64,000 bases of DNA from positions 29,976-93,975 of the forward strand of contig CAWGTM010000025.1 in the NCBI GenBank assembly GCA_963825445.1. Direction: 5' to 3'. This DNA comes from an uncultured Actinomycetota bacterium (GTDB lineage Bacteria; Actinomycetota; Actinomycetes; Mycobacteriales; Pseudonocardiaceae). This document shows, one piece after another, positions 17,595 through 39,829 of this stretch. The translations under genes were made by a program, and so were the position numbers. Each line of letters begins with the position of its first letter. Positions within the stretch are counted from its first letter, which is position 1. Under the pieces are notes generated by a model, which was not told where the DNA came from, did no database searches, and saw only the letters and a list, made by a program, of their open reading frames with translations.

Positions 17595-18299
17595 GTGACG
17601 GTCAGCCTGCTGCTCGTCGAGGACGACGCGCGGATCCGCAAGGCGCTGCGGCTCGCGCTGACCGACGAGGGCTACCGCGTGATCGAGGCGGCCACCGGTG
17701 AGGGTGCGTTGGCCCGGCTCGCCCTCGATCCGGTCGCGCCCGATGTCGTGCTGCTCGACCTCATGCTGCCCGGCATGGACGGTCTCGAGGTGTGTGCGCG
17801 TCTGCGCGAACTGGGCGACCTGCCGATCATCATGGTCACCGCGCGCACCGCGTCGCACGAGATCATCGCCGGTCTGGAGGCGGGCGCCGACGACTACGTC
17901 ACCAAGCCCGTGGACGCGGGCGAGCTGAGCGCCCGCATCCGTGCGCTGCTGCGCCGCGCCCGGGCCGTCGACCCGGACACCCCCGGTGCGATCGAGCTCG
18001 GTGACCTCAGCGTGCGGATCGCCGAGGGCCGGGTGACCCGCGGCGCGGGCGCCGACGCCGAGGAGATCCCGCTGACCAAGACCGAGTTCCGGCTCCTGTG
18101 CGCACTGGCCGCCGCGGGCGGCGCGGTGGTGACCCGCGAGCAGCTGCTGGAACGGGTGTGGGACTACGACTACTTCGGCGACACCCGGCTGTTGGACGTG
18201 CACGTCCGCCGGCTCCGCCGCAAGATCGAACCGGATCCCGGGCAGCCCACCCTCATCATCACGGTGCGTGGGACGGGCTACCGGGCAGGAGTGCCGTGA
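17595..18299 (+). CDS. OmpR/MtrA-family response regulator
   Basis: LVEDD, LDLMLPG, GADDYVTKP, GDTRLLDVHVRRLRRKIE. Confidence 0.93.
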   Translation: MTVSLLLVEDDARIRKALRLALTDEGYRVIEAATGEGALARLALDPVAPDVVLLDLMLPGMDGLEVCARLRELGDLPIIMVTARTASHEIIAGLEAGADDYVTKPVDAGELSARIRALLRRARAVDPDTPGAIELGDLSVRIAEGRVTRGAGADAEEIPLTKTEFRLLCALAAAGGAVVTREQLLERVWDYDYFGDTRLLDVHVRRLRRKIEPDPGQPTLIITVRGTGYRAGVP

Positions 18300-19654
18300 G
18301 CCGACTGACGTTGCGGACCAGGGTGATGGCCTCGTTCGGCCTGGTGTCCCTGGTGGTCGCCGGCACGCTCGCGTTGGCCACCTGGCACCTGGCGACCGGC
18401 TACATGGTCGACCAGCGGGAACGCAGCGCCATCACGCAGGCCACCGGCAACGCGCGGCTCGTTCAGGCGGCGCTGGACCGCGGCTCGGCCGGACTGTCCG
18501 AGCTGATGACCGGCCTGGGCGCGGAGGTGGAGTCCGCGGTGCTGCTGGTCGATGACGGCGAATGGATCAGCGGCGGCAACCTCGTCGACCCCAGACGCCT
18601 GCCCACTCCCTTCCTCGACATGGTCCGGGGCGGCACCGCGGCCCACCAGCGGACGGTGCTGAACGGTGTTCCCGTGCTCGCCGTCGGTCTGCCGCTGGAG
18701 GAGCTGTCGGCCACCTACGTCGAGGTGTCGCCGATGCGCGAGCTGGATCGGACGTTCCGGTACCTCAGTTGGATCCTCGTGGCCGGCACCGCCGCCAGCA
18801 TGCTCGCCGGCGCGCTGCTCGGCCGCTGGGCGACCACGAGCGCGCTGCGCCCGCTGCGCAAGGTGACCGACGCCGCGGCCAGGGCCGCGCGGGGCGATCT
18901 CGGTGTGCGACTGCCCGCCACCCGCGACCCGGACCTCACCCCGCTGGCCGACGCGTTCAACGACACGGCCGAGAAGCTCCAGGCCCGGGTGGCGCGCGAC
19001 ACCCGTTTCGCCGGCGACGTCAGCCACGAGCTGCGCTCGCCGTTGACCACCATGCTCAACGCCATGTCGGTCCTGCACCGACGCAGCGCGGACCTCCCGT
19101 CGAGCACCCGGCAGGCCGTCGAACTGCTCGACACCGACCTGCGCCGGTTCCGCAGGATGGTGGACGATCTGCTCGAGATCTCCCGCGACGACCCGGACGA
19201 CCGGTCGACGTTCGAACAGGTCGACCTGGCCGAGCTGGTGCTCGCCACGATCACCCCCCACGGCGCGTTGCGTGCCGACGCGGTGGAGGTCTCCGCCCAC
19301 CCGCACGTCCTCGGTGACCGGCGCCGGCTGGAACGAGTGGTGGCGAACCTGGTGGACAACGCGGAGCGGCACGGCCGGGGTGTGGTGCGGCTGGGTGTCG
19401 ACAGTCGGGACGGCCGGGCGCGGCTCGAGGTCGACGACGCCGGCCCCGGCGTGCCGGAGGACGCGCGCGAGCACGTGTTCGAACGCTTCGCCCGGGGATC
19501 GCCGGCCGACCGCGACGCCACCGACAGCGGCGTCGGACTCGGCCTGGCACTGGTCAGCCAGCACGTGCGCAGACACGGCGGCCACGCCTGGGTGGAGGAA
19601 AGCCCGGCCGGAGGCGCGAGATTCGTGGTCGAGCTGCCGGAGGTCGTCGAATGA
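18296..19654 (+). CDS. HAMP sensor histidine kinase
   Basis: Two TMs, HAMP, DVSHELRSPL, NLVDNA, DAGPG, GVGLGL. Confidence 0.93.
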   Translation: MSRLTLRTRVMASFGLVSLVVAGTLALATWHLATGYMVDQRERSAITQATGNARLVQAALDRGSAGLSELMTGLGAEVESAVLLVDDGEWISGGNLVDPRRLPTPFLDMVRGGTAAHQRTVLNGVPVLAVGLPLEELSATYVEVSPMRELDRTFRYLSWILVAGTAASMLAGALLGRWATTSALRPLRKVTDAAARAARGDLGVRLPATRDPDLTPLADAFNDTAEKLQARVARDTRFAGDVSHELRSPLTTMLNAMSVLHRRSADLPSSTRQAVELLDTDLRRFRRMVDDLLEISRDDPDDRSTFEQVDLAELVLATITPHGALRADAVEVSAHPHVLGDRRRLERVVANLVDNAERHGRGVVRLGVDSRDGRARLEVDDAGPGVPEDAREHVFERFARGSPADRDATDSGVGLGLALVSQHVRRHGGHAWVEESPAGGARFVVELPEVVE

Positions 19655-20531: not shown

Positions 20532-20893
20532 CGCACGAGTTGGTCGCGCTCGAACGACGTTGCTGGTCGGCCCTGACCACCGGCGACGCCGGTGACTTCT
20601 ACGAGCGCGTCCTGACCGACACCATGATGATGGTGCTTCCCAGCATGGTGTTGGACCGCAGCGAGGTCCTGGAATCCTGGCTGGCCGCCACACCGTGGCG
20701 TGACTTCCAACTGGAGGACACCAGAGTCGTGTCCTTGGGCAACGGCGCGGCATTGCTGACCTACCGGGTCACGGCCTACAGGGAACGCGAGGTCGCCGCC
20801 TACCGCGCACAGTGCACCAGCGTGTATCGAAGGGTCACCGGCCGGTGGCGTCTGGCGTTCCAACAGCAGACCCCACTGGGAACCAACTCGTAG
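20528..20893 (+). CDS. NTF2-like (DUF4440) protein
   Basis: LVALERRCW...ALLTYRV...TSVYRR...WRLAFQQQTP. Confidence 0.8.
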   Translation: MTHELVALERRCWSALTTGDAGDFYERVLTDTMMMVLPSMVLDRSEVLESWLAATPWRDFQLEDTRVVSLGNGAALLTYRVTAYREREVAAYRAQCTSVYRRVTGRWRLAFQQQTPLGTNS

Positions 20894-21012
20894 CAGGAGC
20901 TTTGTCGGGGCTCGCTCCACTGGGTTCGGAACCCCACTCCTGATCACTGCGGCCGTCGCGCTGAGCTGAGACCGGCTTGCGTGGCGGCCGTCCGTACGGC
21001 ATGTTTGCGCGC

Positions 21013-21061
21013 GGAGCGCCGGGAAGTCTGGTCGGCACGCCCACCGGGACGCGGTGGGCCG
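21013..21061 (+). ncRNA. Conserved leader motif, copy 1 (candidate riboswitch)
   Basis: GGAGCGCCGGGAAGTCTGGTCGGC plus a downstream hairpin; 7 nt after the -10-like CATGTT; upstream of the CPA1 antiporter. Confidence 0.65.
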
Positions 21062-21084
21062 TTTCGACGTGGACGGGGGGCGTC

Positions 21085-22314
21085 ATGGCGCTGGTGTTGG
21101 CGTTCGGGGTCGTGCTGCTGATCAGCGTGTCGTTGTCCGGGGTCGCCGCGCGGACGATCCTGTCCACCGCGTTGCTGTTCCTGGTGGCCGGCGCGTTGCT
21201 CGGGCAGGGCGGCTTCGGTGTGGTGGACATCCCGTCGGACGGCGTGTTCGTGACGGGGCTCGCGGACCTGGCGTTGTTCACCGTGTTGTTCACCGACGGG
21301 CAGCGGGCCGGGTTGCCGGCCATTCGGGACGGTTGGCGGCTTTCCGGCCGGGCGTTGGGGCTCGCGATGCCACTGACCATGGTGGGGATCGCGGTGCCGG
21401 CGCACTATCTGGCCGGGCTCGACTGGTCGACGGCGTTCCTCGTCGGCGCGATCCTGTCGCCGACCGATCCGGTGTTCGCCTCGGCGATCGTGGGGCGCAG
21501 CGATGTGCCGCTGCGGCTGCGCCGGTTGCTGAACGTGGAGTCGGGTCTGAACGACGGGCTCGCGCTGCCGTTCGTGCTGATCTTCCTGGCCACGGCGGCG
21601 AACCGGGACGCTCATCTGGGCACGGTGGCGATCGAGCTGGTCGCGGGACTCGCGCTCGGCGTGGTCATTCCCGCCGTCGTGGTCCTGGCGTGGCGGTGGC
21701 GGGTGCTGACCGCCGAACCGAGACTGCAGGCGTTGGGGCCGCTGGCGATCGGGGTCATCCTCTACGCGGCGTGCCACCTCACGCACGCGAATCCGTACCT
21801 CGCCGCGTTCGCCGCCGGGTCGACGGTGGTGACGTTGGACCGGGTGGCCGCGGAACGGTTCGAACACTTCGGGGATCTGCTGTCGGAGACGACGAAGTTC
21901 GCCGCGCTGCTCGTGTTCGGCGCGCTCATCACCCCGGACCGGTTGGCGGACCTGAGCCTGGGGGACTGGGCGGTCGCGGTGATCGCGATCCTGCTGGTGC
22001 GGCCGGCGGCGATGATGCTGTCGTTGGTGCGCAGCACCTTGCCGCCACGGGAACGATCGGTCGCCGCGTGGTTCGGCCCCAAGGGGTTCGCGTCGGTCGT
22101 CTACGGACTGCTGGCACTCCAATCGGGCATCCCCACGGGGGAGCACGTCTTCGACCTGGTGGCCATCACCATCGCCCTGTCGATCGTGCTGCACTCGTCC
22201 ACCGATGTGCCCGTCGCCAAGGCGTTGCGTGTGGAACCGCCGGACAACCTGCCGACCGGAATGCCCGCCACCACGCCGCCGGAGACGCCTCCGCCGGACG
22301 AGCCTCGGCGATGA
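21085..22314 (+). CDS. CPA1/NhaP-type cation:proton antiporter
   Basis: LFTDG, LSPTDPV, ESGLNDG, WFGPKG; many TM segments. Confidence 0.92.
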   Translation: MALVLAFGVVLLISVSLSGVAARTILSTALLFLVAGALLGQGGFGVVDIPSDGVFVTGLADLALFTVLFTDGQRAGLPAIRDGWRLSGRALGLAMPLTMVGIAVPAHYLAGLDWSTAFLVGAILSPTDPVFASAIVGRSDVPLRLRRLLNVESGLNDGLALPFVLIFLATAANRDAHLGTVAIELVAGLALGVVIPAVVVLAWRWRVLTAEPRLQALGPLAIGVILYAACHLTHANPYLAAFAAGSTVVTLDRVAAERFEHFGDLLSETTKFAALLVFGALITPDRLADLSLGDWAVAVIAILLVRPAAMMLSLVRSTLPPRERSVAAWFGPKGFASVVYGLLALQSGIPTGEHVFDLVAITIALSIVLHSSTDVPVAKALRVEPPDNLPTGMPATTPPETPPPDEPRR

Positions 22315-22350
22315 GGTCCCGGCTGGCGTGCGTGGTGGCGTCGCGCAGAC

Positions 22351-23406
22351 TCAGCGATCGCCCTCCGCCTGAGCCGGACCGGTCAGCCGGGTAGGTGTGC
22401 CGGGTCGTCGGGCGTCGGCGGCGTCCGCCACCGCTTCGGCTGCGGCGTCGGCGGCCTTCGCTGCGTCGGCTGCTGCTTTGGCGGCCAGTTCGTCGGTTTG
22501 GGAGACCTCTCGGGTGGCGGGTGAGCGTGGCAGCGTTTCGTTGAACGCTTTCGACACGCCTTGGAGTGCGGCGGTGAACTCGCTGGGGATGACGAAGAAG
22601 GTGTTGTTCGGGCCTTGCGCGAGTTTGGGGAGTGTTTGGAGGTACTGGTAGGCCAGGAGTTGCGGGTCGGGGTCGTTGCGGTGTACGGCTTGGAAGACCT
22701 CGTCGATCGCGCGTGCCTCGCCCTCGGCTGTGAGGATTCGTGCCGATCGGTTGCCTTCCGCGCGTAGTACGGCTGCCTGCTTGTCGCCCTCGGCGGTCAG
22801 GATCTGTGACTGGCGCTGGCCCTCGGCGGCGAGGATGGCGGCGCGCTTGTCGCGCTCGGCGCGCATCTGCTTTTCCATGGCGTCCTTGATGGTCATGGGC
22901 GGGTCGATGGCCTTGATCTCGACGCGGTTGACTCGCAGGCCCCATTTGCCGGTGGCGTCGTCGAGCACGCCGCGCAGTTGGCTGTTGATCACGTCGCGGG
23001 AGGTGAGTGCGCCCTCCAGGTCCATGGAGCCGACGACGTTGCGCAGTGTGGTGACCGTGAGCTGCTCGACGGCTTGCAGGAAGTTCGCGATCTCGTAGGC
23101 GGCCGCGCGGGGGTCGGTGACCTGGAAGTACAGGACTGTGTCGATCTCGACGACCAGGTTGTCCTCGGTGATCACCGGCTGTGGCTGGAACGAGACGACC
23201 TGCTCGCGCAGGTCGATGGCGGGGTGGACGCGGTCGATGTAGGGGATCACGAAGCTCAGGCCGGGTTGCAGTGTGCGCAGGTAGCGGCCGAGTCGTTCGA
23301 CGTTGCGTGCGCGGGCCTGCGGCACGATGCGCACCGAGCGCGTCACCGTGAAGAACGCCAGCAGCACGATGAGGATGCCGACGATCAGAGCGGCGGTGAT
23401 TTCCAT
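22351..23406 (-). CDS. SPFH/stomatin (band 7, QmcA-like) protein
   Basis: VERLGRY, IDLREQV, VITEDN, LRNVVG, KQMRAER. Confidence 0.93.
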   Translation of the reverse strand: MEITAALIVGILIVLLAFFTVTRSVRIVPQARARNVERLGRYLRTLQPGLSFVIPYIDRVHPAIDLREQVVSFQPQPVITEDNLVVEIDTVLYFQVTDPRAAAYEIANFLQAVEQLTVTTLRNVVGSMDLEGALTSRDVINSQLRGVLDDATGKWGLRVNRVEIKAIDPPMTIKDAMEKQMRAERDKRAAILAAEGQRQSQILTAEGDKQAAVLRAEGNRSARILTAEGEARAIDEVFQAVHRNDPDPQLLAYQYLQTLPKLAQGPNNTFFVIPSEFTAALQGVSKAFNETLPRSPATREVSQTDELAAKAAADAAKAADAAAEAVADAADARRPGTPTRLTGPAQAEGDR

Positions 23407-23840
23407 GGTCCCTCCCTGGGATAGACGAGAGCGGTGGTGCCGGTGATCTCCATGACGTCGACGACCTCGCCGACGGGGATCACGAGCGTGGTGTCGTAGG
23501 GGCGGGCCGTCCACTCCTCGCCACCGATCCGGACCCGACCGTCCATTTCGGACACCTCCTGGACGACGAACGCCGCCCTGCCGACCAGCGCGTCCACCCC
23601 GAACGGCTCGAGGGACGGTTGGTGCAGGTGACGCAGTGCTACGGGGCGGATCAGCACCACGCCCGCCACGGCGGCCAGGGCGTAGGCGACGAGTTGGCCC
23701 GCCAGGGGGACACCGATCGCGGCCAGAGCCGCGGGTACCAGCGCCGCTCCGGCGAGTACACCGAGAGCCGCGGTCAGCGTGAAGATCTCCGCGACGCCCA
23801 GCGCGACGGCGACGACCAGCCAGATCAGCCAGAGTGCCAT
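23385..23840 (-). CDS. NfeD-family membrane protein
   Basis: Hydrophobic N-terminus, LVGR, GRVRIGGEEWTAR; canonical partner of SPFH. Confidence 0.9.
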   Translation of the reverse strand: MALWLIWLVVAVALGVAEIFTLTAALGVLAGAALVPAALAAIGVPLAGQLVAYALAAVAGVVLIRPVALRHLHQPSLEPFGVDALVGRAAFVVQEVSEMDGRVRIGGEEWTARPYDTTLVIPVGEVVDVMEITGTTALVYPREGPWKSPPL

Positions 23841-23940
23841 TCGGCGCCTCCGAGCCGGTGACGGCGTGCACGAAGACGTGCGGAACAGGCAACCTCGAGG
23901 CGGAAGAAACGGAGAAGCACGGGTTCAACTCCCTGGTCGA

Positions 23941-23981
23941 CGGCAAGCAACAGCTCTGCCGACCAGACTTCCCGGCGCACC
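23941..23981 (-). ncRNA. Conserved leader motif, copy 2 (candidate riboswitch)
   Basis: GGTGCGCCGGGAAGTCTGGTCGGC (23981-23958) plus hairpin CGGCAGAGC-TGTT-GCTTGCCG; 7 nt after TACGTT. Confidence 0.65.
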
Positions 23982-24170
23982 TGACACCAACGTAGCACTT
24001 GGGGCCCGCGACCGTGTGTCACTCGGCGTGCGGCAGGTTCTTTCGGACCGTGACGGCGGTGCCGAATCGACGCGACGTGACCTGGCGCACGTTGGCCTCT
24101 AGATGGTTGATTCCGTGCAGGTCGTGTGAAGCGGGTCGGTGTCACTGCCTAGGAGGAGGGTGTCCAAGAT

Positions 24171-24506
24171 CAATGAAGTGATCTCACCAACTTTAGTTGA
24201 GTCGGCCGTGTTCGAAGTGGGTGAGGACGAGGGCGGCTTTGGTGACGTCGCCGATCTTGCTTGGGCTGGCGGTGGTGTGGTGGAGGGTGCGCCAGCGGCC
24301 GGTGAGGACGACGAAGCCGCGTTCGCCCAGGCAGCGCAGGCCACGCAGGAATGCGTTGTAGGTGCGGCTGTCGAGGTCGAGTATCTGGTCGCTGGCGGGT
24401 TGTTTGATCGGAGTGTGCACGCCGATCCCCGCGCTTTGTAGCCCCCGTCGGCCAGTGCGGGCAGGTCGAGATGGGCTGCGGCCCAGTACAGAGCGCCGAG
24501 CACGTG
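24171..24506 (-). mobile_element. IS5-like (DDE_Tnp_4) transposase 3' remnant with probable terminal sequence
   Basis: HVLGALYWAAA...LADGGY, frameshift, then VHTPIKQP...RCLGERGF...RWRTL. Confidence 0.75.
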
Positions 24507-24982
24507 GCGACGGCGTAAGCGGTCTTCCAGGTCGACGGCCTGGCGGGTGGGCTGGTCGTCGTCGTGTGGTTCGTCATGCGATCGCGCTGCCGTTGTTGTT
24601 CGGTGGCCCCGGCCTATGACCCACACCTCGTCATGTCGATCCTGACGGCCACCATGACGCTGCTGCTGTACGCGACGTCGGAGCCGCAGAACCCGTACTC
24701 CGGTGGTGCGCAGGTGGACGGTAGTAGAGTCCACATTGGACAGACTGGGACGAACTGTCTGCTGTATGTCGCTAAAAGCGGCTGGTCTCGAGTCAGGGTT
24801 TATGCCGGGAAAGGCGCGATCACTCGCGTACATTCTATTTCACGGCGGTAAAAGCTCACCGATCAGAACAGGGCTACTCAAGGATGGGGCTCGACCGCAC
24901 GGCTCGCCGGCAGTGGATCACTCGAACTCCTGCCGGACTCCCTGTCGAACCCGCCGCGGTGACGCATGGCAGGCTGCTTTCC

Positions 24983-25480
24983 ATGGCCACGCCGAAGCCA
25001 CCGAAACCATCGAAACCGCTGTCCAAGGGCGGCAGGGTGGTCATCTGGATCCTGATCGTGCTCATCGTCACGCTCGGCGTGCTCGGTGGCGTCGCCGTGA
25101 TCGCCGATGGAGTCAACGGCGGCGATGCCCTGGCCGAGGGGCCGGTCGGCACCCTCACCCCCACCGACCTCGAGTGTGGCGACGAAAGCTGCTGGTGGAT
25201 CGGCGAGTTCGTCAGCGCGGACGGCGCGATCACCCGGAGCGGTGTCAGGCTGCGCGACGCCGAGAAGGTCCGCAGGGGCGACCCGATGCCGAGCGGGATC
25301 GACAACGTGCGCCTGCACGACGACGCTGAGCGCCCCACCGCCTACACCGACGACTACAACCCGGTCCCGGGTATCGTCGGCGGCGGGTTCCTGGTGGTGT
25401 TCTGCCTGGTGACAGCGGTGTTGCTGACGCGGATGGTCAGGCGTCACACAGCGGAACGCTCACGCCGACCAGGCGGCTGA
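24983..25480 (+). CDS. Hypothetical membrane protein (two TMs, extracellular loop with a Cys pair)
   Basis: Hydrophobic segments at both ends; ECGDESCWWIGEF. Confidence 0.7.
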   Translation: MATPKPPKPSKPLSKGGRVVIWILIVLIVTLGVLGGVAVIADGVNGGDALAEGPVGTLTPTDLECGDESCWWIGEFVSADGAITRSGVRLRDAEKVRRGDPMPSGIDNVRLHDDAERPTAYTDDYNPVPGIVGGGFLVVFCLVTAVLLTRMVRRHTAERSRRPGG

Positions 25481-25649
25481 GGCGTAGTCCGCGAAGTCGA
25501 TCGAGCACCTGCCGCCCCCCGTCAGCGGGCCCCGCGCGGTGCCCGGCCCGCGTCGCGGCGAACATCACGTTCCGCTCGTCCGCGACCATGAGGCCTCGGC
25601 AGGCCTTCGGCCCGCAACGACGCCCGGTACCGCGCGGGCGTCACCTCCT

Positions 25650-25929
25650 CGCCCCGGATCTGCGCGACGCGTTGCAGCGAGCCAAAGACGACGGTGTGAC
25701 GCGCCTGGTCCTGGACGGCGAGCTGTTCTCCAGTGATCGGAAGAGCGAGAAGACGACCAATGTCAAGGGCGAGCAGCTCGACGCCTGGAACTCCGGCAAG
25801 CACCGTGAAGAGGGCGGCAACGTCCAGGCGCTGATGGAACCCGATGGGATCCCGCTGTGGCTCTCCGAGGTCGAACCGGGCTCCACCCACAACATCACCG
25901 CGGCTCCGAGAACACGTTCTCGGAGCACC
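25650..25929 (+). mobile_element. IS5-like (DDE_Tnp_4) transposase internal remnant
   Basis: APDLRDAL...LVLDG...SGKH...GGNVQ...PDGIPLWLSEVEPGSTH. Confidence 0.75.
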
Positions 25930-26097
25930 CATCCAGGATGACTGTTATGTCCGCAATGGTGCCGGCGTTGGTGTTCATCGCGGCGTTTGTCGTGTTGGCG
26001 TTGTCGATCAGGTTCGCGGGTCGGTCGGTCGGCTCGCGACCGCTGAGGCTCCGCGCCCGATTTGCTCCACAGCCGTGCGTACGGCATGGTTGCTGGT

Positions 26098-26144
26098 GGT
26101 GCGCCGGGAAGTCTGGTCGGCCGTCCGTCCCAGCCGGGGCCGAC
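26098..26144 (+). ncRNA. Conserved leader motif, copy 3 (candidate riboswitch)
   Basis: GGTGCGCCGGGAAGTCTGGTCGGC plus GTCGGCC/GGCCGAC stem; 7 nt after CATGGT; upstream of the mrp operon. Confidence 0.65.
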
Positions 26145-26214
26145 GTTGTGCGCCGACCCCTGGGATCATGAGCATGAAGCTGGTTCGCGGTACCGCTGAT
26201 GCGTTCGGTGGCCG

Positions 26215-26763
26215 GTGGGTCCGAGCCGGGCGGCGCCGCGTGACCGACTCCACCAGCGCCTCGCCCTCTTCGGGTGGGGGCCGCAAAGCGGGGGCGTGCT
26301 GCACACCGCGCCCGCGCTGATCGTGTTCTGGATCATCCTGTCCGGACACTTCGAGGTGTTGTTCCTGTCGCTCGGCGCGGCGTCGGTGCTGCTGGTCTGC
26401 CTGATCTCGTATCGTGCCGGCGTGCTCGAGCGCGACGGGATCACCTTCGCGCTGGTGCTGGGCCTGCCGCGGTACCTGCTGTGGCTGGTCAAGGAGGTAC
26501 TCGTCTCGGCGGTCGGTGTGGTGCGCAAGGCCTGGTCGCCGCGTCCTGACCTGCGGCCGATCGTGGCGAAGACCCCCTCCCCGGGGTTGTCCGAGGTCGG
26601 CCAGGTCGTCTACGCGAACTCCATCACCTTCACGCCGGGCACGCTCTCCTTCGACGTGGACGACGACTGCATCAACGTCCACAGCCTCGACGAGGCGGGC
26701 ATCGAGGACCTGCGTGCCGGGGCGATGTTGCGCCGGGTCCGCCGGCTGGAGCCGCGCCGATGA
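26215..26763 (+). CDS. mrpE: Mrp Na+/H+ antiporter subunit E (start uncertain, possibly 26296)
   Basis: FWIILSGHF, YANSITFTPGT, VHSL. Confidence 0.9.
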   Translation: MGPSRAAPRDRLHQRLALFGWGPQSGGVLHTAPALIVFWIILSGHFEVLFLSLGAASVLLVCLISYRAGVLERDGITFALVLGLPRYLLWLVKEVLVSAVGVVRKAWSPRPDLRPIVAKTPSPGLSEVGQVVYANSITFTPGTLSFDVDDDCINVHSLDEAGIEDLRAGAMLRRVRRLEPRR

Positions 26764-39514: not shown

Positions 39515-39647
39515 CAGCCCCCCACAGTGGACTCGGTGGGAGGGGAGTGCCGTCGGGTACACGTGCCGTGGCCGCCGAAAACTTCGGCAGGGCAGGGAGA
39601 ACCGTCATGCGTGCGGCTCCATCCTCGTGGAATGACACGGTCATCCG

Positions 39648-39795
39648 CGGCCGGTATCCTGACTTCCGGATCATCACGTGGACCACAGCCTTCCCGACTC
39701 GCGTCAGTGGCTCTCTCGTGGCGGCCGTGCGCCCCGGTCACAGTGGCGGGACCGCGCCGGATTCACACCGGCTTCCCTGCACCGCAGACCATTTG
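39648..39795 (-). ncRNA. Cobalamin riboswitch
   Basis: Minus strand reads AGGGAAGCCGGTGTGAATCCGGCGCGGTCCCGCCACTGTGA...GCCACTG...GGGAAGG...AAGTCAGGATACC (B12 box). Confidence 0.93.
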
Positions 39796-39829
39796 GTCAC
39801 CCTGAATAGGACATCCAACTGTGTCGGGT

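Follow-up and report, generated by a model that had tools for sequence, protein, structure and literature searches.

The locus described here raises the question why three neighbouring operons, encoding a CPA1 antiporter, NfeD with an SPFH protein, and the subunits of an Mrp complex, should all be headed by the same 24 nucleotides (nt), and whether this element acts in the DNA or in the messenger RNA (mRNA). The operons lie in a stretch of 64,000 nt of contig CAWGTM010000025.1 (assembly GCA_963825445.1) from an uncultured Actinomycetota bacterium of the Pseudonocardiaceae, hereafter the window, which derives from soil-metagenome DNA runs. Judged by the comparison of homologous sequences, the element is one that acts as RNA and not as a DNA operator, and it is predicted to form the first 25 nt of the mRNA. 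We consider it fairly probable that it works as a two-state, translational leader switch tied to cation stress, the signal being sensed either directly or via a conserved factor.

The 24-nt string, GG(A/T)GCGCCGGGAAGTCTGGTCGGC, is found at 21013-21036(+), 23958-23981(-) and 26098-26121(+) of the window, as an earlier note on this DNA had pointed out. The pattern GGWGCGCCGGGAAGTCTGGTCGGC matches at these three places with 0 mismatches each and nowhere further in the window when up to 3 mismatches are allowed, and 0 matches are expected from 100 shuffles of the window. The genome to which the window belongs (7.8 Mb, 40 contigs, 85% complete) holds these three copies only, by pattern search as well as by covariance model, as two extra matches with 3 mismatches in the pattern search did not rise above the reversed-pattern control. 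Ahead of each copy, a -10-like hexamer that fits the actinobacterial pattern NANNNT ends exactly 7 nt before the first G (CATGTT at 21000-21005, TACGTT at 23994-23989 on the minus strand, CATGGT at 26085-26090). The genes behind the copies, all in sense orientation, are CPA1 for copy 1, NfeD followed by SPFH/Band7 for copy 2 and the Mrp operon for copy 3, with MnhE first and then G, B, C and D-type subunits. Both the hexamers and the sense placement had been described in the earlier note, and the Pfam assignments agree with it.

The same arrangement recurs in a set of 153 sites that carry the core GCCGGGAAGNCUGGUCGGC behind a GGNGN prefix (GGTG in 116, GGAG in 19, GGCG in 13 and GGGG in 5). 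A NANNNT hexamer ends 6-8 nt (mode 7) ahead of the first G in 114 of them, and in 135 a Shine-Dalgarno sequence with an open start lies no more than 140 nt further on, the median leader being 60 nt long; these two spacings place the element, by prediction, at the start of the mRNA. Its orientation relative to the downstream genes is strictly sense, and divergent genes have their own sense copy each (L008, L027, L081). The families found downstream are NhaA (68 sites), CPA1 (25), small CBS-domain proteins (8), NfeD (7), DUF2254 (7), Na_Ca_ex calcium/cation exchangers (6), NatA-like ABC ATPases (4), CitMHS/ArsB/NhaD-like proteins (3), Mrp (2), TrkH (1) and SulP (1), with others at a few sites. 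Recurrent families, ten of them and unrelated to each other, account for 131 of 152 downstream genes, namely 116 cation transporters or their partners, 8 CBS proteins and 7 DUF2254 proteins. Such a functionally coherent set of non-homologous genes, which is generic to riboswitches, is the pattern expected of a cation-stress regulon, and the proposed tie of the element to cation-transport genes is thereby upheld. The link to NfeD-SPFH is real as well, with the limit that all NfeD-linked sites in our sample (L002, L020-L022, L029, L030 and L033) come from the window's own genus. For DUF2254 and the small CBS proteins, their presence in this set suggests a cation-related role; the DUF2254 membrane proteins stand behind the element at L117, L053, L069, L088, L041, L151 and L101, mostly in Acidimicrobiia.

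The case for RNA is carried by covariation, which the earlier note had suggested to look for among homologues and which we found in the stem and in the closing pair. The supported structure comprises a 4-nt tail GGNG, a closing pyrimidine-purine wobble pair (U.G or C.A), a stem GCCG/CGGC and an 11-nt loop GGAAGNCUGGU. The tail is invariant at GG.G among the sites, and so is the loop, save for its sixth base and rare U-to-G changes or deletions (L196, L217-L219, L199, L200, L220). Variants of the stem were taken from lower-scoring matches to R1, a covariance model of the 28-nt element. Compensated changes give UCCG/CGGA before an ABC ATPase with a good -10 (L194), GUCG/CGAC before NhaA-type genes with good -10s (L192, L212, L214) and GGCG/CGCC (L197); in addition, one G-C pair is changed to G.U (L213) and one C.A mismatch occurs (L210). 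The stem has five double compensatory changes in total, and double changes affect 3 of 5 pairs over 86 aligned sites compared with 1.0 in shuffles, none of 500 shuffles reaching that number. At the closing position, the partner of C is A in 54 of 58 sites, that of U is G in 63 of 78 and A in 11, and a single site has C-G (mutual information 0.51 bit); this pattern is kept inside each gene family. On a tree of 61 NhaA proteins the 5' closing base changes at least 17 times, and of 14 phylogenetically independent contrasts in this base, about 12 show the 3' base changing along with it and none shows a change in the opposite sense (sign test p ~5e-4). U.G and C.A(+) are isosteric wobble pairs, whose exchange is known from structured RNAs and is meaningless in duplex DNA. 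As this exchange is meaningful on one RNA strand only, the covariation of the closing pair points to RNA, and the prediction that the element is strand-specific RNA at the start of the mRNA thus agrees with position, orientation and covariation alike.

Two details of the earlier proposal have to be revised. The core had been thought to fold as GCCGGG-AAG-UCUGGU; the helix GCCGGG/UCUGGU shows no double change, leaves the changes in CGGC unexplained and is not needed, compensation being confined to the stem GCCG/CGGC with its 11-nt loop. The motif had also been said to lack dyad symmetry, and it does hold GCCG ... CGGC, a symmetry that is the actual stem. Three other candidates were discarded. 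A two-quartet G-quadruplex built from four GG runs is at odds with L192, L212, L214 and L197, where G24 is replaced with compensation in the stem. A leaderless upstream open reading frame (ORF) starting at the GUG of GGUG does not agree with the 37 of 153 sites that read GGAG, GGCG or GGGG; in such a frame, changes at the variable positions would also be non-synonymous. An extracytoplasmic-function (ECF)-type promoter (GGAA ... GTT) would have inconsistent downstream spacing among the window copies.

The second line of evidence concerns a helix that competes with the hairpin. CGACC, the complement of GGUCG, occurs at variable distance within 70 nt downstream in 72 of the 153 sites, compared with a mean of 20 and a maximum of 37 in shuffles. 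Where a leader has CGAC(C), it ends 0-7 nt ahead of the Shine-Dalgarno sequence in 58 of 86 cases, and in about 12 leaders it follows the start codon (e.g. AUG-ACCGAC in L025, L028, L117 and L152). The duplex between the 3' half of the hairpin, NCUGGUCGGC, and the 18 nt before and across the Shine-Dalgarno sequence reaches -10.2 kcal/mol against -7.6 +/- 0.2 kcal/mol for shuffled sequences (z -12.9), and the same test gave no pairing signal between the Shine-Dalgarno region and the 5' half of the hairpin or its 5' tail. In leaders of type CCGACCGGAGG the pairing extends into the Shine-Dalgarno GGA. The downstream helix comprises 5-9 Watson-Crick pairs, the hairpin 4-5 base pairs (bp; about -7 kcal/mol); since both take the same CGGC, the two states are exclusive. 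A variable downstream hairpin that uses the 3' end of the motif had been anticipated, and the enrichment of CGACC together with the duplex energies supports it. Such a partner is available to every copy in the window (21064-21068, 23941-23933 and 26152-26158), as seen in the following features, for which the downstream helix is called P2 and MFE denotes the minimum free energy.

20977..21005 (+): predicted promoter of CPA1; -35 TTGCGT at 20977-20982, 17-nt spacer, -10 CATGTT at 21000-21005.
21013..21037 (+): leader hairpin, copy 1; R1 score 44.7 bits; tail GGAG, closing pair C21017.A21037, stem GCCG 21018-21021 / CGGC 21033-21036.
21022-21032 (+): loop of copy 1, GGAAGTCTGGT.
21064..21068 (+): P2 partner of copy 1, TCGAC, pairing with GUCGG in the centroid fold.
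21071-21080 (+): G-rich Shine-Dalgarno region of copy 1, after TCGAC and before ATG 21085.
21085-22314 (+): CPA1 gene, ATG at 21085; Pfam Na_H_Exchanger, E 4e-33.
23989..23994 (-): -10 hexamer TACGTT of the nfeD-SPFH operon, 7 nt ahead of the motif.
23957..23981 (-): leader hairpin, copy 2; R1 score 47.4 bits; tail GGTG 23981-23978, closing pair C23977.A23957, stem 23976-23973 / 23961-23958, loop 23972-23962.
23933..23941 (-): P2 partner of copy 2, GTCGACCAG, forming 9 bp with CUGGUCGGC in the MFE and centroid folds.
23934-23929 (-): Shine-Dalgarno-like AGGGAG of copy 2, adjoining GTCGACCAG; GTG at 23920.
23840-23385 (-): nfeD, ATG at 23840, with the SPFH gene downstream to 22351; Pfam NfeD and Band_7.
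26061..26090 (+): predicted promoter of mrp; -35-like TTTGCT at 26061-26066, -10 CATGGT at 26085-26090.
26098..26122 (+): leader hairpin, copy 3; R1 score 42.9 bits; tail GGTG, C26102/C26122 (a rare C.C) at the closing position, stem 26103-26106 / 26118-26121, loop 26107-26117.
26139-26144 and 26152-26158 (+): candidate P2 partners of copy 3, GCCGAC and GCCGACC, of which the MFE fold takes 26152-26158.
26162-26165 (+): GGGA in the start region of copy 3, 3 nt after GCCGACC; ATG at 26168.
From about 26215 (+): coding frame of mnhE, by frame analysis; Pfam MNHE.

The promoter type of the mrp copy, TACGGCATG.T, recurs ahead of the element in Nocardia loci. What follows the helix partner and the Shine-Dalgarno-like site in the leaders of nfeD and mrp is a short ORF and not the main gene. 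The one in the nfeD leader, 23920-23825(-), has 31 codons with a low G+C content at third codon positions (0.58) and overlaps the start of nfeD; the one in the mrp leader, 26168-26320(+), is 50 codons long and reaches into the beginning of the mnhE frame. In the relatives L029 and L030 the nfeD leaders are about 130 nt long, with an ORF right behind the element. Such short ORFs could be remnants, or upstream ORFs with coupling to the main gene.

Taken together, the element combines what is generic to riboswitches, being a conserved, structured, covarying 5'-leader RNA in sense orientation with an expression platform, namely an alternative pairing to the region next to the ribosome-binding site. 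We propose it as a riboswitch candidate that would be structurally new among the cation-responsive leader RNAs. In the mechanism that we envisage, each copy would be the mRNA 5' end and fold into a small hairpin with a GGAAGNCUGGU loop, the 3' half of which, NCUGGUCGGC, could pair instead with a sequence such as (G)CCGACC that either immediately precedes the Shine-Dalgarno sequence or immediately follows the start codon. With this longer helix formed, the ribosome-binding site would be crowded or partly paired and the 5' end single-stranded, which should correspond to the off state; if instead the 5' hairpin is kept closed, the ribosome-binding site would be free and the 5' end protected, which should correspond to the on state. 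At equilibrium the downstream helix should beat the hairpin, so that the default state would hinder initiation, and the signal would be whatever stabilises the 5' hairpin and thereby sets the ribosome-binding site free. Lying 4 nt from the 5' end, a hairpin would guard against 5'-end-dependent decay as well, and such protection could explain the constant place of the element at the very start. As for the signal, it would most likely be a cation stress such as Na+, Li+ or alkaline conditions, because the gene set resembles that of the Na+-I, Li+-I and Li+-II riboswitches. We also considered the C.A closing pair as a general pH sensor and rejected it, as U.G is found in half of the sites and gene class does not separate the two types. 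All six Na_Ca_ex copies (L056, L058, L085, L090, L106 and L121, from Solirubrobacterales and unclassified metagenome-assembled genomes, MAGs) carry A as the 5' base of the closing pair, with A or G opposite, and the variable base of their loop is mostly C or G; these features may be a lineage effect or a specificity variant.

Several observations weigh against a two-state switch of this kind. The transcript start is a predicted position only, the core is almost invariant, so that the covariation comes down to the five stem double changes plus the closing pair, and one of the compensated variants (L197) has no clear promoter. About a third to half of the leaders are without a clear CGACC partner, and MFE folds of whole leaders pair the Shine-Dalgarno sequence with the motif in 79 of 135 leaders compared with 48-61 in controls, a modest excess. 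The three leaders of the window and the bare motif fold, as single sequences, no better than shuffles (z -0.1 to -1.5); a partition function of the whole leader, which pairs everything with the GC-rich downstream sequence, carries no information either way. Moreover, a hairpin of 26 nt is very small for a selective ion aptamer, and its fixed distance from the -10 is unusual for riboswitches and would also suit a protein that reads the 5' end or the DNA.

We put forward tentatively, and regard as somewhat doubtful, the reading in which the 5'-terminal hairpin of 26 nt itself serves as aptamer of a Na+ or Li+ riboswitch class that is new and spread across many Actinomycetota lineages, direct cation sensing by so small an RNA being possible. 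Its main rival is a factor that reads the invariant loop. According to this explanation the hairpin senses nothing, and its loop and 5' tail bind a trans-acting RNA-binding protein, ribonuclease or small RNA that carries the ion-stress signal. A stem that covaries while the 11-nt loop and the tail GG.G stay invariant is typical of a recognised hairpin, and the small size of the element and its fixed place at the very 5' end, which suits a 5'-end reader, fit too. Yet no candidate partner gene recurs near the sites, where the neighbours are transporters, CBS, NfeD and DUF2254 proteins, the sequence is kept in a low-GC Saccharibacteria MAG (L150) that would need the actinobacterial partner too, and the known cation leaders with the same gene sets sense directly (PMC9337991, PMC9646797). 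We hold a trans-acting factor of this type to be rather unlikely.

A DNA operator, at which a repressor would bind the imperfect inverted repeat GCCG-N11-CGGC at +1 to +25, would account for the fixed 7-nt spacing from the -10 and for the partial dyad symmetry, the most variable core position lying at the dyad centre. Nevertheless, the double changes are symmetric and keep the pairs, and would thus weaken both half-sites; the flanks covary as U.G and C.A and avoid C-G; the asymmetric inner bases (GGA vs ACC) are invariant; the complement of the 3' half lies at variable distance by the ribosome-binding site; the divergent gene pairs mentioned above bear one sense copy per gene; and no regulator gene is linked. 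The sites thus do not show the duplex recognition, independent of strand and of pairing, that marks an operator for a transcription factor, and we regard this explanation as very improbable. Weaker still, and scarcely credible in our view, is the idea that the element spread together with cation-transporter genes as a device that constitutively stabilises the 5' end or enhances translation, and does no switching. It would draw on the protection that 5'-terminal hairpins give mRNAs against 5'-end-dependent decay, but it would leave unexplained the restriction to one functional class of non-homologous genes, the invariant 11-nt loop and the specific competing helix by the ribosome-binding site.

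Among 61 related genomes nearly all share the core, with three varying positions (pattern search). As the reversed-pattern control revealed that a pattern search with 3 mismatches picks up chance matches, wider tallies are quoted from the covariance model: R1 detects it in 87 of 151 genomes taken evenly across the class and, for the phylum, in 48 of 151 sampled genomes. These two tallies include the unpublished genomes G179, G214, G236 and G242, and the sequences cited here come from others. In many families with small genomes, R1 found no match among the genomes searched. A scan for the exact core GCCGGGAAGNCUGGUCGGC, with one genome per species, gave at least 119 loci, and among the matches listed nearly all are Actinomycetota, including Streptomyces, Nocardia, Mycobacterium/Mycolicibacterium, Amycolatopsis, Micromonospora and many Micrococcales, as well as Acidimicrobiia, Gaiellales and Solirubrobacterales. 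Outside the phylum, the matches listed include the Saccharibacteria MAG and a MAG labelled Chloroflexi (L054); those in a cyanobacterial MAG (L123) and in Thauera (L147) were set aside, as the GGNGN prefix is missing and they look like chance. In the Candidatus Saccharibacteria genome the full element (L150, 7860-7887(-)), with CGAC by the Shine-Dalgarno sequence, stands before nhaA. Saccharibacteria live on Actinobacteria, and for this reason the nhaA gene looks as if it had been acquired from the host together with its leader. A shortened look-alike, GGGTGC-GCCGG-GAAGA-CCGGC-ATC, with a perfect 5-bp stem and a 5-nt loop, scores 27 bits in two genomes of one family (L203 251-274(+) and L204 251-274(+)), and may or may not be related to the element.

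The window has other features as well. A sensor kinase of HAMP-HisKA-HATPase type is encoded at 18098-19654(+), some 1.4 kb ahead of the CPA1 promoter, and what may be a response regulator immediately precedes it. The space that separates the nfeD promoter from that of mrp holds a DDE_Tnp_4 transposase fragment at 25588-25941(+), with a Pfam E value of 2e-4 that is below the curated cut-off, and, at 24.1-25.5 kb, ORFs without a Pfam match. A cobalamin riboswitch (RF00174) is located at 39632-39819(-), with 92 bits and E 1e-21.

In the literature that we searched, no account was found of sodium or alkaline sensing in Actinomycetota such as streptomycetes, nocardiae and mycobacteria. The element marks a compact regulon of antiporters and exporters that is conserved throughout the lineages sampled, and as an RNA of 26 nt that is easy to probe and mutate it may offer a testable handle on ion-stress sensing. 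It also points to a probable role in ion stress for DUF2254, for small CBS proteins and, in the window's genus, for NfeD-SPFH. Should the RNA bind the cation directly, the sodium-stress regulon would take in NfeD-SPFH, CBS-domain, DUF2254 and NatA-like ABC genes, and there would be a cation riboswitch in a phylum with none reported in the literature searched; its class would be new in structure and unusually small, with an aptamer that ranks among the smallest found in nature.

How does the element relate to known systems? The window was compared with all 4227 families of Rfam 15 by cmscan, and at the gathering thresholds the cobalamin riboswitch was the only match in the whole window, the element being unmatched. 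With E values up to 10, nothing overlapped the element in 20800-26400 of the window and in 17 further element loci. Its absence from Rfam, nhaA-I, nhaA-II and DUF1646 included, is in line with the earlier note, and by covariance model it does not belong to the Li+-I (nhaA-I), Li+-II (nhaA-II) or Na+-I (DUF1646) families. Nor did our literature search find the motif sequence in any paper, or such an element described in Actinobacteria. The Na+-I riboswitch controls nhaA-like antiporters, NhaD and ATP-driven Na+ exporters (White et al. 2022, PMC9337991), and like the element it regulates mixed, non-homologous sodium-related genes, to which the element adds NfeD-SPFH, CBS, DUF2254, Mrp and calcium/cation exchangers. 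DUF1646 RNAs have predicted transcription terminators downstream (Weinberg et al.), whereas the competing helix of the element adjoins the ribosome-binding site, with no evident terminator.

Both nhaA-I RNAs and nhaA-II RNAs are 5' leaders found mostly before nhaA genes, and the two classes are structurally unrelated while sharing gene associations (PMC5737381; White et al. 2022, PMC9646797); the validated Li+ riboswitch examples come from Proteobacteria (Azorhizobium, Pseudomonas, Desulfobulbus) (PMC5737381; PMC9646797). The element likewise is a 5'-leader RNA that stands mostly before nhaA, and it differs from both in that it consists of one hairpin only, of 5 bp and with an 11-nt loop, placed at the very 5' end, and in that it has no covariance-model match to them. 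It thus appears similar in its working to the Li+ and Na+ leader switches, yet not a member of these classes, and as nhaA-I and nhaA-II are themselves unrelated in structure and attached to similar genes, a third unrelated architecture is plausible.

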